Positions 12,496 to 30,172 are shown, numbered from the stretch's first letter. The stretch: DNA of 45,915 nt from Candidatus Stahliibacteriota bacterium (GCA_030606265.1 JAUWGT010000002.1:1-45915); one strand, 5' to 3'. Translations and numbers: made by a program. The notes: generated by a model from the sequence alone, not told the origin.

Positions 12496-13908
12496 ATGAG
12501 CGGTATGGTTGGTTTTTTTTCAAAGAAAGACTGCAAAGAAGATCTTTTTTATGCTACAGATTATCATTCGCATTTAGGTACTTCATATGGTGGGATCGCA
12601 ATCTATGATGGTAAGAGACTCCAGAAAAAGATTCATACGATCTCCAAAGCCCAGTTTAAATCGCGTTTCAGTGAAGATATTGATTTCACCAATATGAAGG
12701 GGCGTGCAGGACTCGGTGTTATCAGTGACCGAGACACTCAACCTTTGATAATGAGTTTGAAGTTTGGCGAATACGCCATCTGTGGTGTTGGCTATATCGA
12801 TAATCAGGATAAGCTTGCCCGACAATTGATTAAAGAAGGTGTTGTTTTTTCTGAAATGCCCAATGGTAAGGTTAACCAAATCGAACTGGCGGCAAAACTC
12901 ATTAATAAAGGGAAAACCCTCATCGATGGTATCGACTACTTACATGACAAAATCGACGGTTCTTTATCATTATTGCTACTCGGTAAAGAAGGCGTTTATG
13001 CAGCCCGTGACAGGTATGGACGGAGTCCATTAGTTATGGCAGTGCGAAGAGGCGATAAGATAATCGTTTCAGAGACCTGTTCATACAAGAACCTTGGATT
13101 TAAGACCAAGAAGTTCCTGGGTCCTGGTGAGATCATTTTAATTAGTGATGGCAAAGTGAAACAGTTGAAAAAGCCGGGTAAGATCATGCAGCTGTGTACG
13201 TTCCTCTATGTATATGCCGGGTTTCCCGCTTCAGAATACGAGGGTAAGAATGTTGAGGAGTTCAGAGAGTGTTCAGGGAGGACAATCGCACGCCGGGATA
13301 GGGTGAAGGTTGACCTTGTGGCTGGTGTTGCAGATTCTGGTACTGCATACGCTCACGGCTATGCGCACGAATCAGGTGTGCCCGTGCGTATCCCTTTGCT
13401 CAAATACACACCGGGATGGGCGCGGAGTTATGTACCGCCATCTCAAGAAACAAGGGATAGGGTGGCGCTTATGAAGCAGATCACTGCCGATGCTTTGATT
13501 AAAGATCAGCGTATGGTAATAACTGAAGATTCTATTGTGCGGGGCACGCAGCTGAAAAACTTTTTGCTCGTTAAGTTGTGGGATGCTGGAGCAAGAGAGA
13601 TCCACGTGAGACCTGCCTGTCCAGCACTCATGTATCCGTGCAAATACCTTTATTCAACGAGGCGGCTCGATGAGTTGTTTGCCCGAAGAGTTCTGAAACG
13701 TATGTTTGGTAAACACATAAAAAATATTGGATCGTATCTTGATCCTGATTCAAAACCATATAAGAAAATGCTCAAGCTCATGGAGAAAGATCTGAATGTG
13801 ACGTCATTACGGTATCAGAGATTAGAGGATATGCTTTCAGCAACTGATTTGCCCGCAAAACGGTTATGTACGTATTGCTGGACCGGTAAGGAAATAGGCG
13901 AACAGTAG
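12496..13908 (+). CDS. Amidophosphoribosyltransferase (PurF)-like protein with degenerate glutaminase domain
   Basis: PRPP-binding loop VITEDSIVRGTQL, ADSGTAYAHGYA, and Cys positions resembling PurF 4Fe-4S ligands (CTFLYVYAGFPAS, PC, CTYC). The N-terminus is MSGMVGFF instead of MCGIVG. AAGGGGG lies 8 nt upstream of ATG 12496. Confidence 0.7.
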   Translation: MSGMVGFFSKKDCKEDLFYATDYHSHLGTSYGGIAIYDGKRLQKKIHTISKAQFKSRFSEDIDFTNMKGRAGLGVISDRDTQPLIMSLKFGEYAICGVGYIDNQDKLARQLIKEGVVFSEMPNGKVNQIELAAKLINKGKTLIDGIDYLHDKIDGSLSLLLLGKEGVYAARDRYGRSPLVMAVRRGDKIIVSETCSYKNLGFKTKKFLGPGEIILISDGKVKQLKKPGKIMQLCTFLYVYAGFPASEYEGKNVEEFRECSGRTIARRDRVKVDLVAGVADSGTAYAHGYAHESGVPVRIPLLKYTPGWARSYVPPSQETRDRVALMKQITADALIKDQRMVITEDSIVRGTQLKNFLLVKLWDAGAREIHVRPACPALMYPCKYLYSTRRLDELFARRVLKRMFGKHIKNIGSYLDPDSKPYKKMLKLMEKDLNVTSLRYQRLEDMLSATDLPAKRLCTYCWTGKEIGEQ

Positions 13909-13947: not shown

Positions 13948-14033
13948 ATAATCAAGCTATACCGTAAGTTGGAGGATGTGCACGTTACATATCCTTTTTC
14001 AACAAAATGAGTAAAGCTTGAAAGGAGAAATAA

Positions 14034-14249
14034 ATGCCAACCTACGGAAATGTGAAGTGGTTTGATGGTAAGAAGGGATACGGTTTCATTGAGAAAGAAG
14101 ATGGGTCAGGTGATGTTTTTGCCCATTATGCAGATATTGCAGGTGATGGGTACCGGACCCTTAGAGAAGGCGAGAGAGTTAAGTTCGAAATTACCGATTC
14201 CCCAAAAGGGGAGAAAGCCACACAGATTGAGCGTGTTGAACGCGAATAG
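14034..14249 (+). CDS. csp: Cold-shock protein (CspA family)
   Basis: GNVKWFDGKKGYGFI (RNP1) and DVFAHY (RNP2); 71 aa; GAAAGGAG SD; terminator follows. Confidence 0.95.
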   Translation: MPTYGNVKWFDGKKGYGFIEKEDGSGDVFAHYADIAGDGYRTLREGERVKFEITDSPKGEKATQIERVERE

Positions 14250-14262
14250 AAACAAACAAATC

Positions 14263-14287
14263 AAAAGCCCCCGAATGGGGGCTTTTT
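14263..14287. terminator. Bidirectional Rho-independent terminator
   Basis: AAAAGCCCCC gaat GGGGGCTTTT between convergent csp and the DUF1625-like gene. Confidence 0.85.
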
Positions 14288-14322
14288 GATTGTAAGGCAG
14301 AAATCATTCACCGTTGAGTTTT

Positions 14323-14628
14323 TCATGACTTGACGGTTTTTTTCTTCCGACCGACAAGCAGGTAGATTACCACGATCACTATGATAATGAGAAGAATAAG
14401 CGCAATCGTGTTGTGAAAGATCATCGAAATAAGAATGGTGATTAAAGAAAGAACAAGGGCGATAACAAAGGTGATTACACCGATTAACCCCCGACCAACC
14501 TTGCCTAAAAATGGTAGGACATCAAGGAATGCACTTATCGGTCCGAGTATAAGAGAAAGGCCGATCCACATCAGTACGAAGCCAACGATCCTCAATATCC
14601 AGCCCATTACTTTGTGCTCGGTTTTCAA
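14323..14628 (-). CDS. DUF1625/TMEM43-like protein, C-terminal membrane segment (downstream of an in-frame TGA; pseudogene or recoded)
   Basis: Three hydrophobic helices. The reading frame stays open and in phase all the way up to 14850, directly after the TGA at 14851-14853 that ends the upstream segment. Confidence 0.55.
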   Translation of the reverse strand: MKTEHKVMGWILRIVGFVLMWIGLSLILGPISAFLDVLPFLGKVGRGLIGVITFVIALVLSLITILISMIFHNTIALILLIIIVIVVIYLLVGRKKKTVKS

Positions 14629-14850
14629 TTGAACTATCGCTTCATCCTTTGTTCCGGTAAAAGCCCGGTAAAGTCGGGTTTTACCTTTATGGTAGTAGGT
14701 AACGATTTCTTTACCGTTCAGTTTACCAAAAAGGGTTACCTTTATTCCTGCATGAACTCCTTTAAAACTTATCCGGAGGTCACCGACCCTTGGATTTCCG
14801 TATGACCCTGATCCCTTGAATACATAGTCACTGCCGATCAGCCTTACATC

Positions 14851-15375
14851 TCAATGTGCGATGGCGATATTTCTATTTAGTTCAATGTTTTCCGATTTGG
14901 GTAATGTGGCTGTTTTATTATCAAAAGAATATATGCCGATTTTAGCTTCATCTACATAAAAGGTTTTCGGCCTTACTAACATCGATGGATTTTCATGGTC
15001 CTCTGGTATTTTAAATTCACTCGATTCCTGCGGATTTGATGTCCAGGCTTTTTCATAACGATAAGTTGTTTTTTCTTCAGTGCCACCACCGGTTTTTTTC
15101 TTTGTTTCGGTTTCGGTTTCTTCAATCCAGGCATACATCTCCACGATGCGGTCAAGCATGATGTATTTTCCCGGTTTCAGGTATTTGGTGTCACCGAGCA
15201 ATTCATTCGTTTTAATGGGTCCGGTCAAGGCCACCAGTTCACCTTGCGCAGATGATTGAAGTGATTTATGGTCTACGGCAATAGCTTTTTCAGCGACCGT
15301 ACCGAGATTGACCCGACCTTCACTGTTCCATAAGACCACAAATGAAACGATGAACATAATGGCGCCGACAAGCAC
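14851..15375 (-). CDS. DUF1625/TMEM43-like protein, N-terminal segment (ends at in-frame TGA 14851-14853)
   Basis: TM helix then LWNSEGR motif typical of the family. The frame stays open upstream to 15459 and encodes YTEVKKTGWGQNIVKSIIG, which is family-like, but has no canonical in-frame start there. Confidence 0.55.
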   Translation of the reverse strand: MLVGAIMFIVSFVVLWNSEGRVNLGTVAEKAIAVDHKSLQSSAQGELVALTGPIKTNELLGDTKYLKPGKYIMLDRIVEMYAWIEETETETKKKTGGGTEEKTTYRYEKAWTSNPQESSEFKIPEDHENPSMLVRPKTFYVDEAKIGIYSFDNKTATLPKSENIELNRNIAIAH

Positions 15376-15483
15376 ACCTATTATCGACTTTACGATATTC
15401 TGTCCCCAACCAGTCTTTTTGACCTCAGTATAAACATCAGGTATATAACCTCCCTTTTGCTAGGTCACTATTTATATTCAAAA

Positions 15484-15511
15484 AGTATAATTATTTATTG
15501 AAAATATGCAA
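15484..15511 (-). promoter_or_regulatory. sigma70-type promoter (minus strand), TTGCAT / 16 nt / TATACT
   Basis: Reverse complement of 15506-15511 and 15484-15489, upstream of the AAGGGAGG SD of the DUF1625-like gene. Confidence 0.35.
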
Positions 15512-15565
15512 GTGCATCCTTGGTAAGATTAAAAACCACAAGGTGGTGTGTAAATATGTTGCGAG

Positions 15566-16183
15566 CTAACGGATTCTTAAAATAAATCCTGTATCATTGA
15601 TATAGATATCGACAGTATCTTGGTTCCGGTACTGGAATGCCCCGATACCATAAGCGGCATCGATAAACGGTATCTTATTACCATGCTTCAGTAGAAATCT
15701 CCACAACTTAGTCTCCGGCTGTATTTGATAGACTGAAGCTGTTTGCTTTTCAGGATCTGACCAGCGTCCGGTAAATCTTGTTACTTGATAATAAGAACCC
15801 GCGCCTAACCATCTTAACGCAAGACCCCATCTCAGGAAATACCCTTCGATCATCCATTGCTCACCGGATATATTGAACCAGCGATGCTGATCTTTCACTG
15901 CATTATAGAAAATTACTTCTGTTGTCCCGCTATCTCTTTCTGCATAAACCCAACCCAGTTGATGTTCGTTGGTATACCGTGAAAAAGTCTGGAGGAATAG
16001 CGAAAGGTAAATGAATGATGTTGCAAAAGCAAATAATACTAGAAAGACAATAAATGAAGATATGAATTTTCTAAAGGTCGTTTTCTTTTTTACTAAATTA
16101 ATAATAGTAGTAATAATTACAACGATAGAAACGACCAGCAAGATAATACCGACCAAACCTATTATTAATGTGAATTTATCCAT
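15566..16183 (-). CDS. Membrane-anchored hypothetical protein (2 TM helices + soluble domain)
   Basis: 205-aa ORF with TAG stop, directly downstream of the rubredoxin gene on the same strand. No family recognised. Confidence 0.5.
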   Translation of the reverse strand: MDKFTLIIGLVGIILLVVSIVVIITTIINLVKKKTTFRKFISSFIVFLVLFAFATSFIYLSLFLQTFSRYTNEHQLGWVYAERDSGTTEVIFYNAVKDQHRWFNISGEQWMIEGYFLRWGLALRWLGAGSYYQVTRFTGRWSDPEKQTASVYQIQPETKLWRFLLKHGNKIPFIDAAYGIGAFQYRNQDTVDIYINDTGFILRIR

Positions 16184-16210
16184 TTATTCCTCGCGTGGAT
16201 TATGATAACA

Positions 16211-16387
16211 CTACATTTCTTCTTCGTTCACATAGGGCGCGAAGAGGTCACTTGCCGCACTGCAAACCGGACAGACCCATTCATCTGGCAAATCCTCAAA
16301 AGAGGTGCCCGCATGGATGCCATTATCAGGATCGCCAAGTTGAGGTTCATACACATAATTGCAGACAGTGCACTGCCACATGTTCAT
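16211..16387 (-). CDS. Rubredoxin
   Basis: Not in the ORF track (58 aa). [58 protein letters not shown] carries canonical CxxC...CPxC iron ligands and GDP/FEDLPD motifs. AAGGAG lies 7 nt upstream. TAG stop. Confidence 0.9.
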
Positions 16388-16416
16388 TATAATTCTCCTT
16401 TATCCATCAGCCTAAG

Positions 16417-16444
16417 ATTCTAATAAAAATATGAAACCTGTCAA
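16417..16444 (-). promoter_or_regulatory. sigma70-type promoter (minus strand), TTGACA / 16 nt / TAGAAT, for rubredoxin
   Basis: Reverse complement of 16439-16444 (-35) and 16417-16422 (-10). Confidence 0.45.
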
Positions 16445-16472
16445 TAGGTTAGAAAAAGCTTTCATGTTTGGC

Positions 16473-16500
16473 TTGACAAGTCGATAATTATACCTAGACT
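16473..16500 (+). promoter_or_regulatory. sigma70-type promoter, TTGACA / 16 nt / TAGACT
   Basis: Divergent from the rubredoxin promoter. The ATG at 16516 lies 15 nt after the -10. Confidence 0.4.
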
Positions 16501-16515
16501 ATCTTCAGTTGGAAT

Positions 16516-16902
16516 ATGTTTAGTTACTTTAGAGTATTCTTCAAAGCTTTTGGTCGCATGCTCAGACGCTGGCCGAGACATGTAGAAAAGAAGATGGTGC
16601 CATTGATCGAACTCATGAAACAGAAAGAGTACAAAAAAGCAGGTAAAGAAATTGCCTATATCTCGCTAGATCTTTGCGCGCAGCTTGAGAGCAAAAAACT
16701 GAAGCCTAAAGAGGCAGATGTGTACTTCACATATTTGTTGGATATCATGGATCTTTCTGTTGTGCCATTGCAAAAAGAAGTCAAAACGCTGATCCTTGAA
16801 GGGAATGTTCTTCGTGATTACGGTAAGAAATTCGGTGCTGATATTAACCGTATGAGAGAGCTTGCGAACGATATAATCGGAACCCATGACGAGAAAAAAT
16901 AG
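16516..16902 (+). CDS. Hypothetical protein (128 aa)
   Basis: ORF with TAG stop overlapping the next gene by 17 nt. Start uncertain (ATG 16516, 16558 or 16594). No family recognised. Confidence 0.4.
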   Translation: MFSYFRVFFKAFGRMLRRWPRHVEKKMVPLIELMKQKEYKKAGKEIAYISLDLCAQLESKKLKPKEADVYFTYLLDIMDLSVVPLQKEVKTLILEGNVLRDYGKKFGADINRMRELANDIIGTHDEKK

Positions 16903-17629
16903 CGATCATTCGGTAAAAATGAAATCGTGGTGTGGCAAGTATTTAGCAGTCAATATTCTGTATTCGAAAGCAGGTGTGGCTCAGCAAATAATGGTGAGTC
17001 ATGATAGGGATGCAATTCTGGTTGATGCCGGCGATGGCGTACTGCGTGACTTGCAGTCTTGCGATTTTAAATGGGATCAATTAAAAGGTCTGGTCTTCAC
17101 CCACGGTCATTTTGACCATATCGGCGGTCTCTACTCATTGCTTGGCTTTTTGCGCATGATCGGTCGTGAACAAATGCTTAAGATATTCGTGCCAAAAGGT
17201 TGTGATGAAGTGAAATGTATGGTCAACTGTTTCCTTCAGAAATACTCGACAACTTTACCGTTTCACATCAAGGTGACGGATCTGGAGCCGGGACAAAGCG
17301 CGGACCTTGCGGCGATGAATATTGAAGCCTATGCTGCGGTTCATTTTGGCAGTATCAAGGGGGCAGGTATAACAAATCACCTGCCTGCTTTGTGTTATAG
17401 AATTACCTTTAAGGGAGAAATCATTGCGATAAGCGGTGATACCGGATCCAGTGCGCCGTTATATGATCTGGTCAAAGAGGCAGACCTTGCTATTATTGAG
17501 GCGACTTTTAGGAACAGCAATGATGCAAATGAAGAATATCTGAAAAAGGTTCACCTCTCAGAAGATATTGCCAAGGACATTGGTAAACTGGCAAAGGAAT
17601 ATATTCTCGTACATAAAGGTAGGAGATAA
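16886..17629 (+). CDS. MBL-fold metallo-hydrolase (RNase Z / beta-lactamase superfamily)
   Basis: HxHxDH motif in FTHGHFDHIGG, plus downstream SGDTG and H residues. Alternative start ATG 16919. Confidence 0.75.
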   Translation: MTRKNSDHSVKMKSWCGKYLAVNILYSKAGVAQQIMVSHDRDAILVDAGDGVLRDLQSCDFKWDQLKGLVFTHGHFDHIGGLYSLLGFLRMIGREQMLKIFVPKGCDEVKCMVNCFLQKYSTTLPFHIKVTDLEPGQSADLAAMNIEAYAAVHFGSIKGAGITNHLPALCYRITFKGEIIAISGDTGSSAPLYDLVKEADLAIIEATFRNSNDANEEYLKKVHLSEDIAKDIGKLAKEYILVHKGRR

Positions 17630-17662
17630 TTTCTGTGAGCATCAAACAGGAAACTTCCCCTC

Positions 17663-17690
17663 TTGACTTGACTCCTGGTGTAGTTAAAAT
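17663..17690 (+). promoter_or_regulatory. sigma70-type promoter, TTGACT (tandem TTGACTTGACT) / 16 nt / TAAAAT
   Basis: -35 at 17663-17668 and -10 at 17685-17690. A GAGGA SD precedes ATG 17710. Confidence 0.4.
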
Positions 17691-17709
17691 TTAGTGAACC
17701 GAGGATAGT

Positions 17710-17994
17710 ATGTTTCTACTTAGCTTATGTTTAGTTCTTATAAATGCCGATTTCACTATATGTGGACATTCGGAATCTCAATTTCAGCCAAGTGTTATCT
17801 TTGTTGACAGTTTATATTATGTATTCTGGTCAGATTTCCGGCAGTCAATGTCAATTTATGGCGCACGTGTGAAACCAGACGGCACGGTGATTGATTCGAC
17901 CGGTGTGTTTTTTTATCAAGGGTATTCAACATACGGTATCCGTACTGCCTATGATGGACAGAACCTTCTATTTGTCTTCCGCTACGGTTGTTGA
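17710..17994 (+). CDS. T9SS cargo repeat protein, N-terminal segment (ends at in-frame TGA 17992-17994)
   Basis: Signal peptide MFLLSLCLVLINA. First copies of the YxVxW...IYGxRVxPDG repeat, which continues in the next ORF in the same frame. Confidence 0.55.
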   Translation: MFLLSLCLVLINADFTICGHSESQFQPSVIFVDSLYYVFWSDFRQSMSIYGARVKPDGTVIDSTGVFFYQGYSTYGIRTAYDGQNLLFVFRYGC

Positions 17995-18015
17995 AATATC
18001 GGAAATATAATTGGG

Positions 18016-19002
18016 GTGCGGGTCACTCCAGAGCTTCAGATGCTAAACACGATACTTGTGAAAGCTGATAGCGAAGTCTCGCGCGAACCAGATATCGTTT
18101 TTGGTGGCGATAATTACCTGGTAGTCTGGTCAGATGGTACTTTTGGCGGTGAATACAAGGTTCAGGCAGCGCGTGTGAACCCTGACGGCGCAGTTCTTGA
18201 TTCTGGTGTGGTTTTTGGCATGGGGGCTTATTGTGAATACCGACCAGCCGTAGCTTTTGATGGTCAGCGGTATTTTGCGGTTTGGTATAACTATAACCAT
18301 AACCCAGCTGGTCTTTTTGGTCGATTCATAAACTCTGAATGTCAGCCTGAAGATCATGAGTTTGTCATCAGAGTATTGTCAGAGGATGCCCTATTAGACC
18401 CGGATATTGCTTTTGGTGACAGTAGTTATCTGGTTGTTTGGAACGAGCCGTCACCATACTATGATGATGATGTGTATGGACAGCTCGTTTCAGTAGATGG
18501 CGATCTGATCGGCGGTGCTATCGCCATTGCAAATGATTCTTCCTACCAATACGGAGCACGCGTCTGCGCTGGTGATACTCTTTATCTTGTGGTGTGGAAC
18601 CAGGACTGCGCCATTTTTGGCCAGTGGGTATCAATGTTAGGGGAGCTCGTTGGCAGCAACTTCCGGATCTCAGATACAGTGAGTTGCACCCGCGATTTTC
18701 CGTCTCTGGCGATCGGTAACGATGAGTCTTTGGTGGCCTGGCACCAATTCTGTGGGGGTAACTATGATATATTTGGTAATTTGGATATTCAACTCGGCGT
18801 AGAACAGACACCAGGTTTTTGGCAAGATAACGAATTCTTCAGTGCCACAATAATCAGCGGACCGCTGCATTTACCTGCCGGTAAGAAGTGTGACGTCTAC
18901 GATATTACCGGGCGACAGATCGATGTTTTGCACATACAGCCCGGCATTTATTTCATCGAACTTGACGGCAAGATAGTACATAAGGTAGTCAAAGTCCGGT
19001 AA
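18016..19002 (+). CDS. T9SS cargo repeat protein, C-terminal segment with sorting domain
   Basis: Same frame as 17710..17994; codons 17995-18015 (NIGNIIG) are open. Repeats GDNYLVVW, QRYFAVW, SSYLVVW, TLYLVVW, ESLVAW. C-terminus YDITGRQI...GIYFIELDGKIVHKVVKVR. Confidence 0.6.
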   Translation: MRVTPELQMLNTILVKADSEVSREPDIVFGGDNYLVVWSDGTFGGEYKVQAARVNPDGAVLDSGVVFGMGAYCEYRPAVAFDGQRYFAVWYNYNHNPAGLFGRFINSECQPEDHEFVIRVLSEDALLDPDIAFGDSSYLVVWNEPSPYYDDDVYGQLVSVDGDLIGGAIAIANDSSYQYGARVCAGDTLYLVVWNQDCAIFGQWVSMLGELVGSNFRISDTVSCTRDFPSLAIGNDESLVAWHQFCGGNYDIFGNLDIQLGVEQTPGFWQDNEFFSATIISGPLHLPAGKKCDVYDITGRQIDVLHIQPGIYFIELDGKIVHKVVKVR

Positions 19003-19084
19003 GCTCAAGGACGTTACTAGTAGTGTGTAGTTGCGGGTTCAACGGTGAATTTGTTTTCTGTTAGTAGCGCAGGTTATTTTACTC

Positions 19085-19112
19085 TTGACAAATCATCAAT
19101 CACAATTATACT
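19085..19112 (+). promoter_or_regulatory. sigma70-type promoter, TTGACA / 16 nt / TATACT
   Basis: -35 at 19085-19090 and -10 at 19107-19112, leaving an ~155-nt leader before ATG 19274. Confidence 0.45.
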
Positions 19113-19273
19113 TAAGTATCGAGAAGGTATTTTACAAGAATGGTAAGGCGTCTGTTATCAGATCGGTCTGATTGCCAGATCTGATAACTTGGAATAAAAA
19201 AACGATAGTACAGTGCACAAGGGGCGCCGTGAGAAGTAATGTATATTCTAATGCCATGATAGGAGAGACAAAT

Positions 19274-20512
19274 ATGCGTAAATATCTAATAATAATCTTG
19301 ATAGCAGGAATCTGTTCTTTAGCAGACGCCGCCTGGGAATCAATTGGACCAGAGGGAGGATATATACGATCTATCGTCGTATCCGCAACTGATGGTGACC
19401 TCGTATACGGCGCGACGTATTATTCACCGAGCAAGATCGTCAAGTCAACTGATGCAGGTGATTCCTGGACTCAGGTCGGTTCATACAGTAGTACTAATTA
19501 CTGCATGGCGATCGACCCTACAAATGATAATAAGCTTTATGCTGGAACATATTACCGTGTTTATAGATCAACAAATGGCGGGATTACCTGGATCGCCAGC
19601 AGTAGTATTACTTATGTTTATATATACGGTCTTACTGTCCATCCAACCAACCCGACCACGATATATGGTGCGGGCAGAAAATATGTGAGCAGCGGTAATT
19701 ATGATATGGTTTTTCTGAAGAGCACGGACAGCGGTCTTAACTGGATAAGCACGAGCCTTGAGATCGGTGGTTATAGTTATGGTTGGAGCGTGGCGGTCGA
19801 CCCTTCTAACCCGAGCAATATCTACGTTGGTGGATGTGGTTACACGACCACTTATAACCCTAAGGTTTACAAATCAACTGACGGCGGCTCGACCTGGAAC
19901 GAGGTCTATACAGCGACAACCGGCTATTATGTGTATTCAGTTGCAGTACATCCGACTAATTCTAATATTGTCTATGCCGGTACTTACACGGACGGCATTT
20001 ATCGTACAATAAATGGCGGTACGTCATGGACCAAGGTCCATACTGGTAATTACAGTTACCGGATGGCAACGACACCAGATGACCCTGATGTGGTTTTTGC
20101 CAGTGGCTACAACTATGTGTATCGAAGTGCCAATGCTGGTGCCAACTGGTCGACCGTGATAACTGGTTTGCCCACTGGCGGTTACTACTACGGTTTGGCG
20201 ATAAACCCGGGTGATGCTAATGATGCGTATCTTGGCGACAGATCAGGATTCTACAAGACGACAAATATGGGCACAAACTGGTATGCATCGAATAATAGTT
20301 TGCTTCTGGCTGATATAATAGGTATCGGTGTTGCACCGTCCTTACCATCGACCATATATGCAACATTTGAGGATGTCGCTGTTTACAAAACAACTAACAA
20401 TGGCGATGATTGGACCAAATTACCGTCTTTTTCAAGTTGCGGTGATATGTGCGCTTTTGCAATCCATAATACTGACCCAAACACGGTATTTACTCTTGAG
20501 GGGTATGGCTGA
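19274..20512 (+). CDS. BNR/Asp-box (sortilin/Ycf48-like) repeat T9SS cargo protein, N-terminal segment (ends at in-frame TGA 20510-20512)
   Basis: Signal peptide MRKYLIIILIAGICSLADA after an AGGAGAG SD (the track start at 19172 is an upstream extension). Eight S/TxDxGxxW repeats such as KSTDAGDSWT, RSTNGGITW, KSTDGGSTW. Confidence 0.6.
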   Translation: MRKYLIIILIAGICSLADAAWESIGPEGGYIRSIVVSATDGDLVYGATYYSPSKIVKSTDAGDSWTQVGSYSSTNYCMAIDPTNDNKLYAGTYYRVYRSTNGGITWIASSSITYVYIYGLTVHPTNPTTIYGAGRKYVSSGNYDMVFLKSTDSGLNWISTSLEIGGYSYGWSVAVDPSNPSNIYVGGCGYTTTYNPKVYKSTDGGSTWNEVYTATTGYYVYSVAVHPTNSNIVYAGTYTDGIYRTINGGTSWTKVHTGNYSYRMATTPDDPDVVFASGYNYVYRSANAGANWSTVITGLPTGGYYYGLAINPGDANDAYLGDRSGFYKTTNMGTNWYASNNSLLLADIIGIGVAPSLPSTIYATFEDVAVYKTTNNGDDWTKLPSFSSCGDMCAFAIHNTDPNTVFTLEGYG

Positions 20513-20596
20513 GGAACCGCCCAGGGCTATAAGTCCACCAACGGCGGGTCCAGTTGGAGTCTATCAGATCCTGGTTATTTTAGTTCAGGTTTTAAC

Positions 20597-21526
20597 ATGA
20601 CCAGGGATCCTAATAACAATTCAGTTTATTGGAGTTGTGGCGATTACTACACAGGCAGTATCTATGCAATGGCTGCGTCCAAAACAACTGATGCGGGCGT
20701 GACCTGGGTAAGGTATAGCCTGAGTCCAGGAACAGGTGATGCTTATTGCGTAGCAGTAGATCCTTCAAGCTCAAATATTGTATATGCAGGTGGTTCTGAG
20801 AGCAGTGCTGGTGCGATTTACAAGACGACAAACACAGGGTCAAGCTGGTCAAAGCTCACGGCAACCGGTCTGTCAGGGTATGTCTATGATCTGGCGATCG
20901 ATCCACTGAGCACGAGTACACTCTATGCAGGAACAGCAAACAGCGTCTACAAATCTTCTAATGCCGGTATGAACTGGTCGAGTACCGGTTTTAGCGGAGG
21001 TCGTACTAATGCCTTAATAATTGATCCTATAGATAATAATATCGTCTATGCTGGGACTTATAATAATGGTGTATACCGTAGTACAAATGCTGGTGGTAGT
21101 TGGACACAGATGAATGATGGTCTTGATGAGCTCACGATAAATCGTATGGGTATTGATCCCGGTGTGTACCTCTATGCCGGAACCGACGGTGCTTCAATGT
21201 TCCGTTGGTCTCTACAAGTAGGTGTTGAGGAATCCCAGGAGAATCCAGCAACGTGGCTTGTTTTATTTGCTTATCCGAATCCAGCAAAAACAAATACCAC
21301 GATCCAATATGTTTTGCCCAGAGAGACTGCCGTGGATATTGCGATCTTCGATGTTCAAGGAAGACTTGTAAGAGAACTTATCCAAGGCGAGCAGAGTACT
21401 GGTATGCATTCAGTATTTTGGGATGGATATGATGAACAGAATAATCTTACCGCAGCTGGCGTTTACTTTTACAAACTGACAACCGGATATGAAAGCGTGA
21501 TCAATAAATTGATATTAGTGAAATAA
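20597..21526 (+). CDS. BNR/Asp-box repeat T9SS cargo protein, C-terminal segment with sorting domain
   Basis: Same frame as 19274..20512. The open codons 20513-20596 encode GTAQGYKSTNGGSSWSLSD, a further BNR repeat. C-terminus YPNPAKTNTTIQY...IFDVQGRLV...WDGYDEQNN...GVYFYKL...LILVK. Confidence 0.65.
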   Translation: MTRDPNNNSVYWSCGDYYTGSIYAMAASKTTDAGVTWVRYSLSPGTGDAYCVAVDPSSSNIVYAGGSESSAGAIYKTTNTGSSWSKLTATGLSGYVYDLAIDPLSTSTLYAGTANSVYKSSNAGMNWSSTGFSGGRTNALIIDPIDNNIVYAGTYNNGVYRSTNAGGSWTQMNDGLDELTINRMGIDPGVYLYAGTDGASMFRWSLQVGVEESQENPATWLVLFAYPNPAKTNTTIQYVLPRETAVDIAIFDVQGRLVRELIQGEQSTGMHSVFWDGYDEQNNLTAAGVYFYKLTTGYESVINKLILVK

Positions 21527-21543
21527 TATTTACGGATGAACTG

Positions 21544-21574
21544 GGGGCTCTGTAAAGAGCCCCTTTTTGTTTTT
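21544..21574 (+). terminator. Rho-independent terminator
   Basis: GGGGCTCT gtaa AGAGCCCC followed by TTTTTGTTTTT. Confidence 0.85.
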
Positions 21575-21610
21575 ATGAGACTTAGCATTCCCGACCAATT
21601 TAATATTATC

Positions 21611-21638
21611 TTTACAAGTTTATTGATTTTGCTATAAT
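21611..21638 (+). promoter_or_regulatory. sigma70-type promoter, TTTACA / 16 nt / TATAAT, abutting the kinase start codon
   Basis: -10 at 21633-21638. The only possible start (ATG 21644) begins 6 nt later, implying a leaderless mRNA. Confidence 0.45.
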
Positions 21639-21643
21639 GGAAG

Positions 21644-23518
21644 ATGTACTATGATGACAGTACCCTGCCATCATTAACGCCTGACCCCGGTGAACGGATC
21701 CGTGAATATGAGATCATTGGCAAGATCGGGAGCGGTGGTATGGCCACCGTTTACAAGGCACGCCACACTTTGATAAATCAGGTTGTTGCCATTAAAATAA
21801 TGAAACCGGCGCTTACTTCTGACCCTCAGTTCTGTGAGCGGTTTCTGCGCGAAGCACAGGCGACCGCGCAACTGACCGGCCATCCAAATATCGTCACCAT
21901 TCACAATTTTTTTGAAGATAATGGTATGTATATTTTTGTCATGGAATATATTGAAGGTATCGGCGTTAATGATGAAAAGATCCGAACGCTTGCCCAGCGC
22001 ATCAAGAAATTCGGCGCTTTTGATATCGATAGTTTTTCACCGGTTCTTGGAGGGCTTTTGTCGGGTCTGGGTTTTGCTCATGACCACTCCATCGTGCACC
22101 GTGATATCAAGCCTTCAAATATTATGTTTTCTAAAAAATCTATTGCTAAACTCGTTGATTTCGGTATTGCCCAGATGGTCGGCGATCAAAAAATTACAAG
22201 GACTGGGACTGCTGTTGGGACGCCAAAATACATGTCACCCGAGCAGGTGAGAGGTAAGGAACTCGATACGCCGAGTGATATCTATTCACTTGGTATAACG
22301 ATCTATGAAGCTTTGACTGGACAAGTACCTTTTCGAGGTGACACTGATTATGAAATAATGCGCAAGCAAGAGGAGGAAATACCTTCATCGCCCGGGGATA
22401 TAAACCCGCACATTACGGAAGTCTGGGATCATCTTATTCTAAGGTGCTTATCTAAAGATCCTCAGCAGCGACCACAGAGCTGTCGGGAAATATCGCATAT
22501 CCTGAAGATGAACATCGTCACTGATATACCTGAACCGCCGGTCAGAATTAAAGCGCATCCTGTTCATGATACAAAACAGGCAAAGGTCGGCCAGAAACCA
22601 GAAGGGAAAGCGACTGACAAAAAGAAAACGAAAAAGCTGCACGCTATTTTTTATATCGGTTTGGGTGTATTTATTACCTGTACGATCCTGGCTTTGTTGT
22701 ACTACTTAACCATTCACTATCCGCGCCACAAAGAACTTATTAAACCTCTGCTCCCCGGGGTCAGCACTCCCGCCGATGCTCAAATAACGATTGAATCGCC
22801 GGCCCGTAAGTATTCTATAATCGGCAATCTGATCGTTGGTTCATCGTATGTGAAAAATGCTTTCGTTTTGTGTGACGAGGCAAAATTGAGTGAGATCATC
22901 GACCAACTCAGGCAAGACGAACCAGATATTACGTATGTTCATTTTACTGATGACCAAAATACCGTGATCGCCTCGAGCGATCCAGGGATAATGGGCGCGG
23001 TGTACAATTCAAAAATCCTTGATCCAGATACTTATGCAGTCCGGCAGCGCGACCGGTTCTATGAATGCGGTTTCAGTATCGAACTCGAAGAGAAAAAGTT
23101 CGGTGCGCTGTATTTTGGTGCGCTAACGAGTGAACAAGAACAAACACAACCCCAGAATGAATCACGTGCTGAAAGGTATAAAAGTATCGGTAAGGTCATT
23201 GCTCACTCTTCATATGTTGAAGACGTGCTGGTAATGGATGGGATAGCCACGCTTGATGATATCATTAGCGAATTACGTGCTGCGGTAACTGATATATCAT
23301 TGGTGCACTTTACTGATGGACAGGGTGTCATAGTTGCATCGAGCGATCAAGCGTCTTTAGGTCGTGAATTTTTCAGTGACATCCTTGAAAATGAAGAAAG
23401 CGTAGTTAGGCAGAAAGATGGTTATTATGAGGGTGGATTCAGTATCAGGATAGGGGAGAAAAGAATAGGTACTTTATATTTTGAAGCGGCGCTCACCGTA
23501 GGTGATAACTTTCGGTAA
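21644..23518 (+). CDS. Ser/Thr protein kinase with TM helix and duplicated extracytoplasmic sensor-like domain
   Basis: Hanks kinase motifs GSGGMATVYKA, AIK, HRDIKPSNIMF, DFGIA, GTPKYMSPEQ. TM helix IFYIGLGVFITCTILALLYYL. Two ~120-aa C-terminal repeats. Confidence 0.9.
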   Translation: MYYDDSTLPSLTPDPGERIREYEIIGKIGSGGMATVYKARHTLINQVVAIKIMKPALTSDPQFCERFLREAQATAQLTGHPNIVTIHNFFEDNGMYIFVMEYIEGIGVNDEKIRTLAQRIKKFGAFDIDSFSPVLGGLLSGLGFAHDHSIVHRDIKPSNIMFSKKSIAKLVDFGIAQMVGDQKITRTGTAVGTPKYMSPEQVRGKELDTPSDIYSLGITIYEALTGQVPFRGDTDYEIMRKQEEEIPSSPGDINPHITEVWDHLILRCLSKDPQQRPQSCREISHILKMNIVTDIPEPPVRIKAHPVHDTKQAKVGQKPEGKATDKKKTKKLHAIFYIGLGVFITCTILALLYYLTIHYPRHKELIKPLLPGVSTPADAQITIESPARKYSIIGNLIVGSSYVKNAFVLCDEAKLSEIIDQLRQDEPDITYVHFTDDQNTVIASSDPGIMGAVYNSKILDPDTYAVRQRDRFYECGFSIELEEKKFGALYFGALTSEQEQTQPQNESRAERYKSIGKVIAHSSYVEDVLVMDGIATLDDIISELRAAVTDISLVHFTDGQGVIVASSDQASLGREFFSDILENEESVVRQKDGYYEGGFSIRIGEKRIGTLYFEAALTVGDNFR

Positions 23519-23737: not shown

Positions 23738-26700
23738 TTATGATCTTTGCTTTCTCAGGTTTTCCTTCGGCTTTTTCTTCCGCTCGAAAAGCGTGTATAT
23801 TACGGGGATGAACACGAGGGTCAAGAATGTTGAAATTAACAATCCACCGATGACTGATCTTGCCATGGGCGCACGCATCTCACTGCCGGCCCCGATACCG
23901 AGTGCCATGGGGATCAACCCAAAGCTGGTGGTCAGTGCGGTCATAAGGATAGGTCTAAGACGGACTCTTCCGGCCTCGACCACAGAATCAAAAAGCGACA
24001 TACCTTGCTCGCGGCGCAGCTGATTAGTATAGGTAATATAAACGATCGCATTGTTGACCACGATACCGCCGAGCAATAGCACACCCATCAGGCTTTGCAT
24101 ATTGATCGTCGTGCCGGTAAAAAAGAGCATCCATACGACACCAATGAGAGCGAGTGGTACGGTAAACATGATAATGAACGGCTCTTTGAATGATTCAAAC
24201 TGCCCGACCATTATCATATAAACAAGAACAAGCGCAAGTAATATGACAAAGCCAAGATCCCGGAATGTGTTCATCTGTTCTTCAAAACCGCCACCCATTT
24301 CAACGATGAAATCGGCGGGTTTTCGCAGGTTCTCGATGATCTTTTGGACATCAGCGGCGACACTGCCCATATCACGCCCTTCAACACTACCGGTGATCGT
24401 AACGATACGTTTATTATCCTCGTGATCAATTGAAACAGGTCCTATTGCGATTGTGTCCTTGATAAAATTTTGTAATGGTATCTCGCCGACCGGGGTCGTT
24501 ATCGTCATCGCTATTAATTTTTTAAGATCATTCCGATATTTTTTGTCGATCATGAGTTTAATATCATACTCATTACCTTCTTCTCGGAATTGACTGGCAA
24601 CCGCGCCTTCCAAACGTGAACGCAGAACACTACCGATCTGATAAGGCGTGAGTCCGAAATTCGCGGCCTTGCGGCGGTCAATGAGCAGCTGGTATTCTGG
24701 TTTTCCTTCGCCAAAACTCGATTCAAGACTAACGAGTCCTTCAACGGTTTGAAGCGTATCCATTAATTGGTCAGATATATTCTTTGCTTTTTCACGATTA
24801 TATCCGAAAATTTTGATCTCAATAGCGGGGCCGCCGCCGAACATAGAAAAATCATCCTGACCGAATGTTACTTTTAATCCTGGAATGATATTCTCTATCT
24901 TGGGTCGCAGGTCATGCTGAATATCGAAGACTGAACGCGCACGTTTTTCACGATGAGGAAGCTCGATCCATATTTGAGCAAAGTGAGGACCTGCAGTGCT
25001 CATGAATAGACTCATCATACCACCGGAACCAGCACCTATTGATGTCGACATTATGTTGATCTCAGGTACCTCCTCGGCGATGATCTTTTCGAGGTCTTTG
25101 ACCGCTGAATCAGTGACCCACATATTCGTACCGACCGGCATTTCGGCATTGATAATGATCTCACCCTGGTCTACCTGGGGAGTTAACTCGGTGCCGATCA
25201 GCGGTACCAGACCTCCCAGACTGACAACGAAGACACCAAGGGTGACGAGTATTACTATTAACCTATGTTGCAGGGCCCACTTGATGATGCGTGTGTATAC
25301 ATTTTCGACGCGTACATAGAAATTTGCCAGTCGTTGACCAAAAGCCTGTCTTTTTAAGGTTTTGAAACGTACGGAAAGCATCGGGATGATCGTTAAGGCG
25401 ACCAAGAGAGACGAGATAAGAGCAAAAGTAACGGTAAGGGCTAATGGTTTAAAGAACACCGAAGCCAGACCGCTGACCAGAAGGAGCGGTAAAAAAACCG
25501 CGACCGTGGTCAGGGTCGATGCTGTGATCGCGGCCGTCACTTCTTTGGCTCCAGCGCACGCGGCTTTTTTGGGCTCTTCACCTTTTTCTTTGTGGCGGAA
25601 TATCGCTTCGAATACAACGATCGCTGAATCGAGGACCATACCTATCGCGATCGTTAAACCACCGAGTGAGATGATATTGAGACTGAGGTTGAAGATATAC
25701 ATGAGAAAGAGAGAGAAAAAAACCGTGATAGGGATAGCCAGTGCTATGTACAGGGTTGAGCGGAAACTGCCAAGGAAAAGAAATAGGATAACAACAGCGA
25801 GGATCGCACCGAATATCAAAGTCTCTGCCGTGCTGCGCACTGAACGGTTGATAAAATCTGCCTGGTCGAAAATGAGGTCGACCTGGATACCTGGCGGCAG
25901 GTCTTTTTTTATTTTTTCAAGTTCTTTAACGACCGCGGTCGCGACTGTCACAGTATTGGCATCAGTTCGTTTTTGTACAAAACCCCATAATGACCGCACG
26001 CCATTGGTCCGCGAGATAGAGGTCTGTTCAGATGGTGATGAACGAACATCAGCGATCTGGGAGAGCAGTATCGGTATGCCGTTATTGTTACCAACAACTG
26101 TATTTCTAATTTCCTCGAGGTTGTCATACTCACCGATCGTTCTTGCGATATAAATTTTGTTCCCGGTTTCTATATTGCCGAGTGGATAATTAATGTTCTG
26201 TGCCTGCAGCGCGCCGATAATCTGGTCCGACGTTATCCCGGTACCTTTCAGCTTGAGCGGGTTGAGCACTATCTGTATTTCTTTCATGGCTTCGCTCATA
26301 GCATATGATGCGGCAACGCCGCCCACACGCTGGAGCTGGTCGGCGATATCTTCAGCGATCTCATCCAATTCAAGCGGGTCTATATCCCCGCCTACCGTAT
26401 ACATGACAACCGGTTGCTGTGAAATATCGAACTTGAAAATCATAGGGTAGGCTGCATCATCAGGTAGATATGGAGTCAGGAAGCCTAAAACATCTCGTAC
26501 GTCATTTGATGCCGCGTCAATATCTGCTCCCCAGTCGAATTGCATAAAGATCATAGAAAGATTCTCTGATGTCGTTGAGGTCATCTTATCGAGGTTATTC
26601 ACCGTACCAAGACTTTTTTCAAGCGGGTCAGTTATCTGCGTTTCTATTTCTACCGGACCTGCCCCAGGATAACTCGTCATAATAAACATCATAGGAAATG

Positions 26701-27705: not shown

Positions 27706-28977
27706 CTATTCCTCCTTACCAATTGCTTTTTGAATCTCAGCTCTGGATGTATAATACCGCTTCAGTGCTGAGAGATAATTAGTTCTTGCCTGCATTGCTG
27801 CAAGCTGGACATCCATGAACTCAAGGTTTGTTGCCAGACCATTGCGATATCTGATTTCAATGATCTTATATGTTTTTTCTGCCTGAGTAACATTATCCTG
27901 GGCTGCAGCAATGGATTGCTTTGCGGCCTGGGAATTGTAAAAAGCTTGTTTTACTTCAAACACGATAGCTTTTTCCAGATTTTCAAGGGCCAGCTGGGCA
28001 CCTTTTACCTGGAGAGTTGCTTGTTTATACTGAGCGAGATTTCTGAAACCGGTGAATATTGGAAAGTCAAAACCAATATTAAAAGTGATATTCGTGCCCC
28101 AATCATCGCCACCAAAACCAAATGGTTTTGTCCGTGCATAAGTTGCACCGGCAACCAGGGACGGCAAGTTTGCACGGGCGGCGATCGTTTTGCTTAGTTC
28201 TGTTATCCGGGAATATTTTTTCAGATTCTTCAATTCAATACGGTTCTTTACTGCTTCTGCAGTCAGGTTATCAATATCGAATTCATCGTCAACCATTTGC
28301 AGTTCACCGGTGAGCTTGAATTCCTGTTGCAGGGGTGATCCCAGGAGCATTTTGAATCCTTCCTGAGCCAGTTTCAAACCATTCTCGGCCCCGATCATTT
28401 GCGGTTTAAGGTTTGCTACCTGCACCTGGGCGCGGAGTAATTCGAACTGGGGTACAAGACCAGCTTTGTATCTTGTCTCAACGGATCTTGCATGTCTTTC
28501 AAGTTGAGCTAGACTTTCGTGTGATAGGTTTACCATTTCTTTTAATATAAGTATGCCATAGAATGCATCAGTTACTGAATATCGCACTTCCTGTCTTTTT
28601 CTCACCATGTCGAGTTGAGCAATATCCTTGCCGAGGTCAGAAATTTTGTAGGCATTATATATTTTACCCCAGGTAAAAAGAACTTGCTGCAAGGTAACCT
28701 GATAATTGTAATTTTCGTGCTGTCCCATTGGTATGGGTATGCTATCCAATTCAAAAACCGCAACATCACTCATATATGCATAGTAGCCGCTGGCCGAGAT
28801 ACTGGGATAAAATGCCGATCGTGCTTCATCGACCATTGCTTGCGCAGTCCCGGCATCCAGGGTCAATTGTTCAATTTCTGGATTATTCTGCAGCGCATAA
28901 TCTATTGCCTGATAAAGAGACAATTCCAATGTATCGGTCGGTGCTATACTTATAATAAATATAAAAATAAATACCAT
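27706..28977 (-). CDS. TolC-family outer membrane efflux protein
   Basis: Two tandem halves with TolC-type repeats (LSLYQAIDYALQNNPEI, LVPQFELLRAQVQVANLK, YRNGLATNLEFMDVQ). GGAGG lies 5 nt upstream of ATG 28977. The track start TTG 28989 directly follows the upstream TGA. Confidence 0.85.
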   Translation of the reverse strand: MVFIFIFIISIAPTDTLELSLYQAIDYALQNNPEIEQLTLDAGTAQAMVDEARSAFYPSISASGYYAYMSDVAVFELDSIPIPMGQHENYNYQVTLQQVLFTWGKIYNAYKISDLGKDIAQLDMVRKRQEVRYSVTDAFYGILILKEMVNLSHESLAQLERHARSVETRYKAGLVPQFELLRAQVQVANLKPQMIGAENGLKLAQEGFKMLLGSPLQQEFKLTGELQMVDDEFDIDNLTAEAVKNRIELKNLKKYSRITELSKTIAARANLPSLVAGATYARTKPFGFGGDDWGTNITFNIGFDFPIFTGFRNLAQYKQATLQVKGAQLALENLEKAIVFEVKQAFYNSQAAKQSIAAAQDNVTQAEKTYKIIEIRYRNGLATNLEFMDVQLAAMQARTNYLSALKRYYTSRAEIQKAIGKEE

Positions 28978-28989
28978 TCCTACCTCCAA

Positions 28990-29580
28990 TCAGGGTATAA
29001 AGATATTGAGTCCAATACCATGCTCCCAGATCTTTTCATCTTTATCAAAATACCCGTATTTCTCAAGCTCGGCACTCGCAATATAATTGTAGCGTGTTGT
29101 ATATTCAAGAGCGATATATTTGACCGGTCTAAGCTCCAATGTGAAACCACCGACAAAACCGACGTCCCTTTCTGACATTTCTGTATCATCAGGTAGGACA
29201 ACGACTGAACCATTGTCCAGAGCACGCCATAGATAAAGTCCAAAACCTGTTTCAAGCGTGAAGCTGAACCAGGTGGGTTCAATAAATGGAAGAAGGTCAA
29301 AGCTCGTGCATAGCGTCAGCGGGATAAATTCATATTCATAAGTATCCGTGGCGGCTACTGCCGGATAGGTTACCATGTTGCCTCTGAGTTTCAAACCTAT
29401 ATGTGGTATAAAATTCCTTATCTCCAGCTCGCCACCAAATCCCCACTCACCTCTTGGATCTTCATCATCTTGATACAAGTAATTATAAGAGTAATGGGGA
29501 CTGAAGGAAAGCATGATCCCGTTGTTTCCATTAGCTGCTGCGACCAATATGGGTAAACTCAATAAGAGAAGTTTCTTCAT
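28990..29580 (-). CDS. Putative small outer-membrane beta-barrel protein
   Basis: Signal peptide MKKLLLLSLPILVAAA, then alternating hydrophobic/aromatic beta-strand pattern. First structural gene of the efflux operon. TGA stop. Confidence 0.5.
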   Translation of the reverse strand: MKKLLLLSLPILVAAANGNNGIMLSFSPHYSYNYLYQDDEDPRGEWGFGGELEIRNFIPHIGLKLRGNMVTYPAVAATDTYEYEFIPLTLCTSFDLLPFIEPTWFSFTLETGFGLYLWRALDNGSVVVLPDDTEMSERDVGFVGGFTLELRPVKYIALEYTTRYNYIASAELEKYGYFDKDEKIWEHGIGLNIFIP

Positions 29581-29581
29581 A

Positions 29582-30172
29582 TCACCTCCTTCTTTTCAAA
29601 CCATTAAAAAATAGTTCAAGTATTTCATTTTTGTCTATTTGTTTCTTTGGTACAATAAAATTGACAAAGAATCCAGTACGTATTGTGTTGAGATAATGCA
29701 AGGCTGCTACGTGCGGCTCAATTTTTCTGAATTCTTTTTTTGCGATACCTTGTTCAATGATCTTTGCGATAATATCGATCATTTCTTTTAAGCGGAAATT
29801 CATTATCGGCTTGACCGCCTTCATGATTTTGCTGGAAAGATTGATATTCTCCATGGAAAACATAAAGAAAGAGCTTTTCAGCTGGATCATGGTATCGATC
29901 CACTCGTCCGCGATTTTTTTCAGTTTTTTTGTGGACGTCATTGATTCTTTTTCAACTTCATGTAAATAATCAATACCCACTTTAAAATGTTCTTCAATGA
30001 CACTGACATACAAGGAAGCCTTATCCTTAAAATAAAGATAGAGAGTACCCTTGGCTATCCCCGTTGCCTGTGCAATGTCAGCTACTGTAGTTTTGAAAAA
30101 ACCTTCCTTGGCGAATATCCTCAGCGCGCAGTTTATGATTTTTTCCCGGGTATGTTGTTCTTTTGTTCTCAT
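29582..30172 (-). CDS. TetR/AcrR-family transcriptional repressor
   Basis: N-terminal HTH (IINCALRIFAKEGFFKTTVADIAQATGIAKGTLYLYF). Heads the efflux operon. A palindromic operator lies upstream. Confidence 0.9.
   Translation of the reverse strand: MRTKEQHTREKIINCALRIFAKEGFFKTTVADIAQATGIAKGTLYLYFKDKASLYVSVIEEHFKVGIDYLHEVEKESMTSTKKLKKIADEWIDTMIQLKSSFFMFSMENINLSSKIMKAVKPIMNFRLKEMIDIIAKIIEQGIAKKEFRKIEPHVAALHYLNTIRTGFFVNFIVPKKQIDKNEILELFFNGLKRRR

Follow-up and report, generated by a model that had tools for sequence, protein, structure and literature searches.

Three genes with an in-frame TGA

The window analysed here is a 45,915-nucleotide stretch of DNA from a Candidatus Stahliibacteriota bacterium (GCA_030606265.1, JAUWGT010000002.1:1-45915), in which three genes lying between positions 14323 and 21526 are each divided by one in-frame TGA codon. 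Gene 1 (14323..15375, minus strand) encodes a TMEM43-family membrane protein with a premature stop in this assembly. Gene 2 (17710..19002, plus strand; 430 codons) encodes a secreted repeat protein with a signal-like N-terminus and a C-terminal tail of the type IX secretion system (T9SS) type. Gene 3 (19274..21526, plus strand; 750 codons) encodes a BNR/Sortilin-Vps10-type beta-propeller with a signal peptide and, by Pfam and NCBIfam matches, FlgD_ig and Por_Secre_tail domains. All public annotations seen present genes of the gene 2 and gene 3 families as split into two "hypothetical proteins".

An earlier examination based on the DNA alone (the sequence-only reading) had described three single in-frame TGAs with no frameshift or other type of stop, and family sequence continuing across each junction. 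Translation of all three stretches bore this out: each contains one TGA and no other stop or frameshift, and the TMEM43 Pfam domain, the repeats of gene 2 and the BNR motifs of gene 3 run unbroken across the junctions. The three sites had been taken for a single phenomenon, a view that did not hold. Comparison with relatives resolved them into two conserved recoding sites with a shared downstream hairpin (genes 2 and 3), which are most likely selenocysteine (Sec) codons, and one strain-level nonsense allele (gene 1).

The window is matched by seven metagenome contigs at 99.6-99.96% identity, found by exact-protein look-up via the neighbouring metallo-beta-lactamase-fold gene. JGI samples 3300042089, 3300040952, 3300040953 and 3300042087 are the source of L001-L007. 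Further relatives, labelled Candidatus Stahlbacteria and candidate division WOR-3, came from a scan of species-representative genomes with a 10-sequence alignment as the query. They include L012, a 94% relative, and L018, a complete chromosome (CP070834.1) with its gene 2 orthologue inside 1,037,231-1,050,181. The WOR-3-type DNA compared amounts to about 285 kb of related loci, which are designated by L numbers.

A conserved Cys-TGA in the repeat protein

The hexamer TGT TGA of gene 2 (17989..17994, plus strand) consists of a Cys codon and a putative Sec codon (17992-17994), giving a candidate Cys94-Sec95 pair. All 16 distinct orthologous sequences read as DNA have TG[TC] TGA at this point; the Cys codon varies synonymously and the TGA is invariant. 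Their sources are unbinned metagenome contigs and metagenome-assembled genomes that carry the labels Stahlbacteria, WOR-3 and TA06, and the sequences span about 40-94% protein identity. Every locus read has the same layout, namely an open reading frame (ORF) of 94-100 codons with a signal-like N-terminus, the TG[TC] TGA, and the remainder of the gene in the same frame. For example, the junction reads FRYGC-TGA-NIGNIIGVRVTPE in the window and in L012, LRDSC-TGA-GQGNVMGVRVTPE in L009, FRNTC-TGA-QFGDIMGVRVTPE in L010, FRQGC-TGA-DIGNIIGVRVTPG in L018 and FRDGC-TGA-SVGDICGVRVTPD in L026.

The best 47 or so database homologues of gene 2 (36-80% identity) are nearly all 275-331 aa long and correspond to the post-TGA part only. 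A search of the 94-aa N-terminal part against 1.84 billion representatives, aimed at full-length Cys orthologues, was swamped by large multi-repeat paralogues and returned nothing else. The assignment of the gene 2 product to T9SS cargo is by similarity only, as it has no Pfam match and its tail aligns with homologues named T9SS or secretion-system sorting-domain proteins.

The repeat of about 70 residues from which the protein is built (query, window 17710-17991) is widespread, being matched by 4393 representative proteins, and the best-scoring matches listed mostly contain 11-13 copies together with a DUF3659 match. The Cys-TGA arrangement seems to be confined to the short, 6-repeat form of these proteins.

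A conserved TGA in the beta-propeller

The TGA of gene 3 (20510..20512, plus strand), the putative codon for Sec413, lies within the context EGxG-TGA-[GD] and is invariant in all 10 family members read, which come from 8 loci. Among the best 120 homologue clusters (37-92% identity), more than 60 have a length of 412-438 aa and stop exactly at the TGA (EGxG), and each of the 10 copies read has, after the TGA, a same-frame C-terminal ORF that includes the sorting domain. In L026 a gene 2 orthologue is followed by two tandem gene 3 paralogues, all of them split by TGA in the same manner.

The full-length gene 3 product carries the marks of T9SS cargo at both ends, with a signal peptide and, at residues 667-747 of 750, matches to PF18962, PF13860 and TIGR04183. 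This C-terminal sorting domain (21272..21514, plus strand) would be made only upon read-through. A CGDMC motif (residues 389-393; 20438..20452, plus strand) lies 20 residues before the putative Sec codon. The corresponding CGxxC is kept in nine of the 10 TGA-type copies, the remaining one (L025) having CGDIN, and it is absent from the full-length non-TGA homologues P0124-P0128. The TGA column is occupied by Cys in P0124, which is the closest of the full-length non-TGA homologues.

A common hairpin downstream of both UGAs

RNAalifold predicts hairpins after the UGAs of genes 2 and 3 unaided. The hairpin of gene 2 (18011..18031, plus strand), which resembles a selenocysteine insertion sequence (SECIS), has its stem at 18012-18018/18024-18030 and a CGGGU pentaloop at 18019-18023, 24 nt past the UGA. 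Its consensus among orthologues, GGRGUG-CGGGU-CACUCC, begins 18 nt after the UGA, and CGUGU, AGGGU and CGUGC occur as loop variants. Gene 3 has two hairpins, a small one predicted by RNAalifold (GGGCU-AUA-AGUCC; 20524..20536, plus strand) and a SECIS-like main hairpin (CCAACGG-CGGGU-CC(A)GUUGG; 20538..20557, plus strand) with its loop at 20545-20549, 32 nt past the UGA. The main hairpin appears in other species as CAGACGG-CGGGU-CCGUCUG.

Pairing in these stems has been kept through sequence change. In the gene 2 stem, 94.6% of cells in an alignment of 14 sequences are paired, compared to 33-54% with slid partners; pair 24-36 occurs as AU in nine sequences, GU in three and GC in one, and pair 21-39 as UA in five, GU in three, AU in one and CG in one. 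In the gene 3 hairpins the paired share of cells is 90.9%, and pairing survives both-sided changes in four pairs, namely 31-45 and 33-43 of the main hairpin, where the changes are compensatory, and 16-26 and 17-25 of the small hairpin (CG to GC, UA to GU). Taking both genes together, 91-95% of cells are paired versus 16-54% with slid partners, six pairs show compensatory changes, and the covariation score lies above those of all 500 shuffles (0/500 reached it). Codon usage is constrained as well. The share of same-residue pairs using different codons is 0-0.03 at stem codons +10 to +14 of gene 3 and 0.4-0.8 in the flanks; in gene 2 the stem Val codons GTG and GTC have zero synonymous variation and the loop Arg codon varies freely.

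[quoted passage not shown] The hairpins found here agree with this model in their CGGGU loop, stems of 6-8 bp and spacings of 24 and 32 nt, with MFE values from -6.3 to -11.5 kcal/mol. The gene 2 hairpin of the window has a 6-8 bp stem and an MFE of -8.6 kcal/mol. The main hairpin of gene 3 has 7 bp plus a bulge; most orthologues reach -10 to -11.5 kcal/mol, and in the window the main hairpin together with the adjacent one reaches -11.3 kcal/mol.

A 19-position covariance model (R1) was built from six hairpins of other loci, four from gene 3 orthologues and two from the L047/L050 pair described below, with the gene 2 family outside the training set. Searched with filters off on both strands of the whole 45.9-kb window, the model gave exactly two matches at E <= 10, the best at 20538-20557 and the other at 18012-18030.

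A long-range pairing between GGAACCGCC and GGCGGGUCC in the MFE fold of the window gene 3 was dropped, as it is not conserved in orthologues and the local hairpin is.

Further families with a Cys-TGA

The WOR-3-type DNA was scanned for split genes, taken as pairs of same-frame ORFs, each of 90 codons or more, that flank a stop. The real genes recovered were those of the gene 2 and gene 3 families, the TMEM43 allele, a TAG-split RND transporter gene in L012 and two more T9SS-cargo genes; the remaining pairs were adjacent genes sharing a frame by chance, or non-coding frames.

A third T9SS-cargo family (L047:5278-6318, TGA 5560; L050:127-1128, TGA 370) has a conserved Cys-TGA in the context CGWY[SD]C-TGA-SDC, followed by a hairpin, UUGCUC-CGGGU-GAGCAA, whose loop (CGGGG or CGGGU) starts 19 nt past the UGA. 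The L047 protein has 20 database homologues (42-53% identity), each of which corresponds to the post-TGA part only; one of them is labelled candidate division WOR-3. A fourth T9SS-cargo gene, seen at a single locus (L036:8284-10257, TGA 8866), has the Cys-TGA context YDTCYDC-TGA-SATEMAK and a hairpin GGCGAA-GGUC-UUCGCC. The SECIS element of E. coli fdhF has GGUC as its loop. The CGGGU is not a shared peptide motif, because its codon phase differs in each of three families (GTG CGG GTC, GGC GGG TCC and CCG GGT).

The in-frame TAG of L012 (minus strand, 9015) interrupts an RND (ACR_tran) transporter gene whose frame is open for 344 codons on one side and 668 on the other; this TAG looks like ordinary pseudogenisation or error.

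A nonsense allele in the TMEM43 gene

The TGA of gene 1 (14851..14853, minus strand) falls at conserved Trp codon 175, within a PF07787 match that spans residues 80-321 across the stop (E 1.2e-54). Five near-identical (conspecific) assemblies could be compared at position 14851. L001, L004 and L006 have C, that is, TGG (Trp) on the coding strand, and an intact TMEM43 gene of 344-350 aa; the window, L003 and L005 have TGA. The orthologues from all five other species compared (L008, L012, L014, L015 and L031) have TGG in the context IAIAHWD. No SECIS-like hairpin was found after this TGA by single-sequence folding, by a hairpin search or by model R1 over the whole window.

With a sense codon in relatives, one G-to-A step and no recoding signal, the stop in TMEM43 is a nonsense mutation (TGG to TGA) that arose recently and segregates in the population; it is unrelated to the sites in genes 2 and 3. 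Its presence in three independent assemblies indicates a real segregating allele and not a read error. The mutation probably inactivates the allele that carries it.

Among the explanations offered by the sequence-only reading, programmed recoding is upheld at 17992 and 20510, where TGA and hairpin are conserved, and fails at 14851, where relatives have TGG and there is no hairpin. Population-level variation applies to 14851 alone, with TGG and TGA found among near-identical assemblies, and does not apply to the other two sites. The contention that plain decay could not account for all three sites proved sound, two of the TGAs being conserved across species.

TGA as a working terminator

TGA ends about nine of the approximately 38 genes of the window, and in-frame internal TGAs occur in three. 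The TGA that terminates the TMEM43 gene (14323..14325, minus strand) is TAA at the corresponding codon in four other species (L008, L014, L015 and L031), which makes it a control for TGA as a stop. After the TGA at 28990 come GGAGG and the ATG of a TolC-like gene, the TGA at 29582 overlaps the ribosome-binding site (RBS) and ATG of the next gene, and the one at 36557 ends the gene of a 1166-aa S8 protease, three residues beyond the end of its T9SS sorting domain. The terminators at 14323, 28990 and 29582 had already been recognised in the sequence-only reading. Its additional argument that read-through at 11595 would overlap yedK by about 170 nt is its single weak detail, another TGA being met after 12 codons.

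A reassignment of UGA to Trp or Gly does not agree with these data: TGA terminates genes, and only one of the three in-frame TGAs in about 38 genes stands at a Trp column. The code is the standard one with UGA as stop, and a reassigned code is excluded.

On the minus strand at 27706-29595, a 201-codon ORF and the TolC-like gene lie by chance in one frame with a single TGA (28990) between them. Because the RBS and ATG directly follow that TGA, the pair is two genes, a look-alike and not a fourth recoding case.

Population variants and neighbouring genes

Relative to the window, L001 lacks 90 bp in gene 2 (window 18301-18390), about 72 bp in gene 3 (window ~20720-20795) and 16 bp in the RND transporter gene (window 25793-25808), the last causing a frameshift; L002 lacks 22 bp in gene 3 (window 19504-19525), also causing a frameshift. 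Repeat-mediated variation within the population or artefacts of assembly could account for these deletions. Downstream of gene 3, in the spacer (window 21520-21577), eight clustered differences including a 1-bp indel are common to L001 and L002. In the GATase_7 gene, five substitutions within 16 bp (window 12825-12840), all at third codon positions, distinguish the window from all five other covering assemblies, which suggests a short recombination tract.

The metallo-beta-lactamase-fold gene adjoining gene 2 (window 16886-17629, plus strand) has an annotated match to Pfam PF23023 (Anti-Pycsar Apyc1-like). A gene with a weak PF23023 match lies directly upstream of the gene 3 orthologue in L047.

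Selenocysteine as the probable inserted residue

Translation across the UGAs of both genes 2 and 3 is, as we see it, established by comparative evidence. The conserved structured RNA and the loop shared by unrelated genes point to a common trans-acting reader, and in geometry, in having a G-rich loop, in using UGA strictly and in the neighbouring Cys the sites match SelB-dependent Sec insertion. Genes 2 and 3 probably represent two uncatalogued selenoprotein families among the T9SS cargo of Candidatus Stahlbacteria, with Sec the most likely meaning of their UGAs. There is about an even chance that the lineage possesses an entire class, four families or more, of extracellular proteins that obligately contain Sec and have a SECIS consensus of their own.

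The mechanism proposed here extends from the RNA to the exported protein, and for the inserted residue, SelB binding, export and Cys-Sec site chemistry it is one that we infer. In two adjacent T9SS-cargo genes, an mRNA hairpin with a CGGGU pentaloop would form about 20-30 nt downstream of the UGA and, by analogy with bacterial SECIS, would be bound by SelB carrying Sec-tRNA(Sec). SelB would then compete with release factor 2 at the UGA and bring Sec to that codon. If termination prevailed there, a truncated fragment without the sorting domain would result; only the read-through product would be exportable, because signal peptide and T9SS sorting domain are both present only there. The gene 2 product would have a vicinal Cys-Sec pair and the gene 3 product a Sec 20 residues after CGxxC.

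Several observations weigh against Sec as the residue or against the strength of the hairpin evidence. Nearly all accepted selenoproteins have Cys-containing orthologues (PMC12013277), and the scarcity of Cys orthologues among the matches listed is atypical for selenoproteins. The best 120 matches of gene 2 contain no full-length orthologue at all, with a sense codon or otherwise, no Cys orthologues of the L047 family occur among the matches listed, and the TGA column in the other three of four non-TGA gene 3 relatives (38-40% identity) holds Pro, Leu and Pro. Neither tRNA-Sec nor selA, selB or selD was found in the window or the approximately 285 kb of fetched loci, which are part-genome DNA only, and no known selenoprotein family was seen in the same DNA. 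A tRNA search of the window and 26 related loci returned only tRNA-Asn and tRNA-Glu, with no tRNA-Sec and no suppressor tRNA, and there is no tRNA gene in the window. As to the hairpins, the covariation is modest, with most stem positions invariant; the gene 3 hairpin of the window taken alone has an MFE of -6.3 kcal/mol, just short of the -7.5 threshold; single-sequence folding z-scores after each TGA are unremarkable, only comparative analysis being informative; and an Rfam scan of 14000-22000 at E <= 10 detected no SECIS or other relevant family.

Alternative explanations

Some of these observations would fit hairpin-stimulated read-through that does not involve Sec, in which the hairpin, by itself or together with a further factor, slows termination and the UGA is read by a Trp, Cys or Arg tRNA or by a dedicated non-Sec tRNA, the arrangement serving as an attenuator of T9SS cargo. 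The data reveal recoding and hairpins and not the identity of the residue, the matches listed contain no Cys orthologues of gene 2 or the L047 family, and the non-UGA relatives of gene 3 have Pro or Leu besides Cys. However, a loop conserved across unrelated genes in differing codon phases argues for a sequence-specific binding partner, the geometry fits the bSECIS model and L036 has the classical GGUC loop. Furthermore, the Cys-UGA found in three of the four families is a known selenoprotein motif (CU families, PMC13188914), and leakiness alone hardly explains the long and strict retention of UGA over a sense codon. We consider such read-through unlikely. A more specific form of the idea is a lineage-specific, Sec-independent system of WOR-3 and its relatives in which the CGGGU hairpin recruits a factor that inserts another residue or gates read-through of exported proteins. 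The scarcity of Cys orthologues keeps Sec-independent, hairpin-directed read-through in consideration, and a non-Sec system would explain why Cys-containing orthologues are missing; we regard this specific form as decidedly improbable.

Each pair of ORFs could also be two cistrons, with a stop at the TGA, a downstream restart and two polypeptides. Gene callers annotate the pairs in this way everywhere, and gene 2 has a GTG eight codons past its TGA, but the downstream product would have no signal peptide and the upstream product no T9SS sorting domain. The frame is always shared, conservation starts at the codon after the TGA, and the repeats cross the junction. In gene 3 the called starts of the downstream ORFs are not conserved, lying 19 to about 160 nt past the stop; reinitiation does not explain this gene, because the starts vary while amino-acid conservation begins with the first codon past the TGA. 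The two-cistron account is thus very unlikely. Still less credible is a UGA that is sense throughout the genome, through a reassigned code (Trp or Gly) or the general opal suppressor tRNA that the sequence-only reading had listed. The TMEM43 TGA stands at a Trp position and Gly would suit the gene 3 context GYG-x-G, but the roughly 38 genes have just three in-frame TGAs and about nine TGA terminators, of which one is TAA in other species, others abut an RBS or start and one closes a sorting domain. Homologues have residues other than Trp and Gly at the gene 2 and gene 3 positions, and the window has no tRNA gene. A suppressor also finds no support in the TMEM43 TGA, which has no hairpin and is TGG in relatives. 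The least probable account of all three sites is ordinary decay or the systematic sequencing or assembly error that had also been suggested. The TMEM43 TGA is indeed a nonsense allele, and other assemblies of the population carry deletions in genes 2 and 3 and in the RND transporter gene. However, independent assemblies agree on the TGAs of genes 2 and 3, as do 16 diverged sequences of gene 2 and 10 of gene 3, and both halves are open and conserved. For these two genes decay or error is refuted by cross-species conservation, and for TMEM43 the three independent assemblies argue against a read error.

Novelty and implications

No selenoprotein model in NCBIfam matches gene 2 or gene 3. The 2026 inventory of selenoproteins in prokaryotes (PMC13188914, Table 1) has no entry for PF15902, PF18962, PF13860, Sortilin, BNR, propeller or T9SS, neither family is mentioned among the new families of deep-Sep, and nothing was found in the literature linking WOR-3, Stahlbacteria or T9SS with selenocysteine. 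If the assignment to Sec is correct, these are selenoprotein families outside current inventories, unusual in being exported T9SS cargo with few or no Cys counterparts. Standard searches based on Cys/Sec homology would miss such families because Cys-containing counterparts are few or absent, and the CGGGU hairpin provides a simple handle for locating such genes throughout WOR-3 and TA06 genomes and mending them. A correct assignment would also raise the question of what role a Cys-Sec pair plays outside the cell, and export would depend on selenium supply. More generally, the locus illustrates that true recoding and ordinary mutation can both lie behind "three in-frame TGAs" of a single region.

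Comparison with known systems

The system most suitable for comparison is the SelB-dependent SECIS of the E. coli fdhF type, for which the bSECIS consensus of Zhang & Gladyshev 2005 is summarised in PMC13188914. Like bacterial selenoprotein genes, genes 2 and 3 have a conserved in-frame UGA where UGA is otherwise a stop, and translation continues. Like bacterial SECIS elements, their hairpins lie in the coding region 16-37 nt downstream and have a small G-rich loop, with stems of 6-8 bp in this case. In contrast to bacterial selenoprotein genes, the products are candidate users of Sec that appear to be T9SS-exported surface proteins and not cytoplasmic redox enzymes, and their Cys orthologues are scarce or absent; in contrast to bacterial SECIS elements, the hairpins follow a loop consensus peculiar to this lineage, and in gene 3 the main one is preceded by a further small hairpin that lies after the UGA.

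Vicinal Cys-Sec motifs are known from the CU families of the published inventory (PMC13188914). As in CU selenoproteins (KCU-star NF033934, SaoC NF040734), the putative Sec directly follows Cys in gene 2 (GC-U), L047/L050 (C-U-SDC) and L036 (DC-U). Unlike in those proteins, with which there is no sequence similarity, the motif is found inside a secreted beta-repeat protein and is not C-terminal. The C-terminus of mammalian thioredoxin reductase, GCUG, is also a Cys-Sec arrangement, and this arrangement forms a selenenylsulfide in known cases.

Code reassignment (tables 4 and 25; Eggerthellaceae report, PMC13462651) resembles the present case in that table 11 gene calls are split and one of the three sites is Trp. 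It differs in that TGA terminates genes here, very few in-frame TGAs occur and, of the three, two stand outside Trp or Gly columns. The TMEM43 TGA is like an ordinary nonsense polymorphism, being a single G-to-A transition found in some strains with no downstream signal; the TGAs of genes 2 and 3 are unlike one, being under long-term purifying selection. The proposed mechanism is of a known kind; what appears to be new is the families themselves, the fact that they are secreted, and a loop consensus specific to the lineage.

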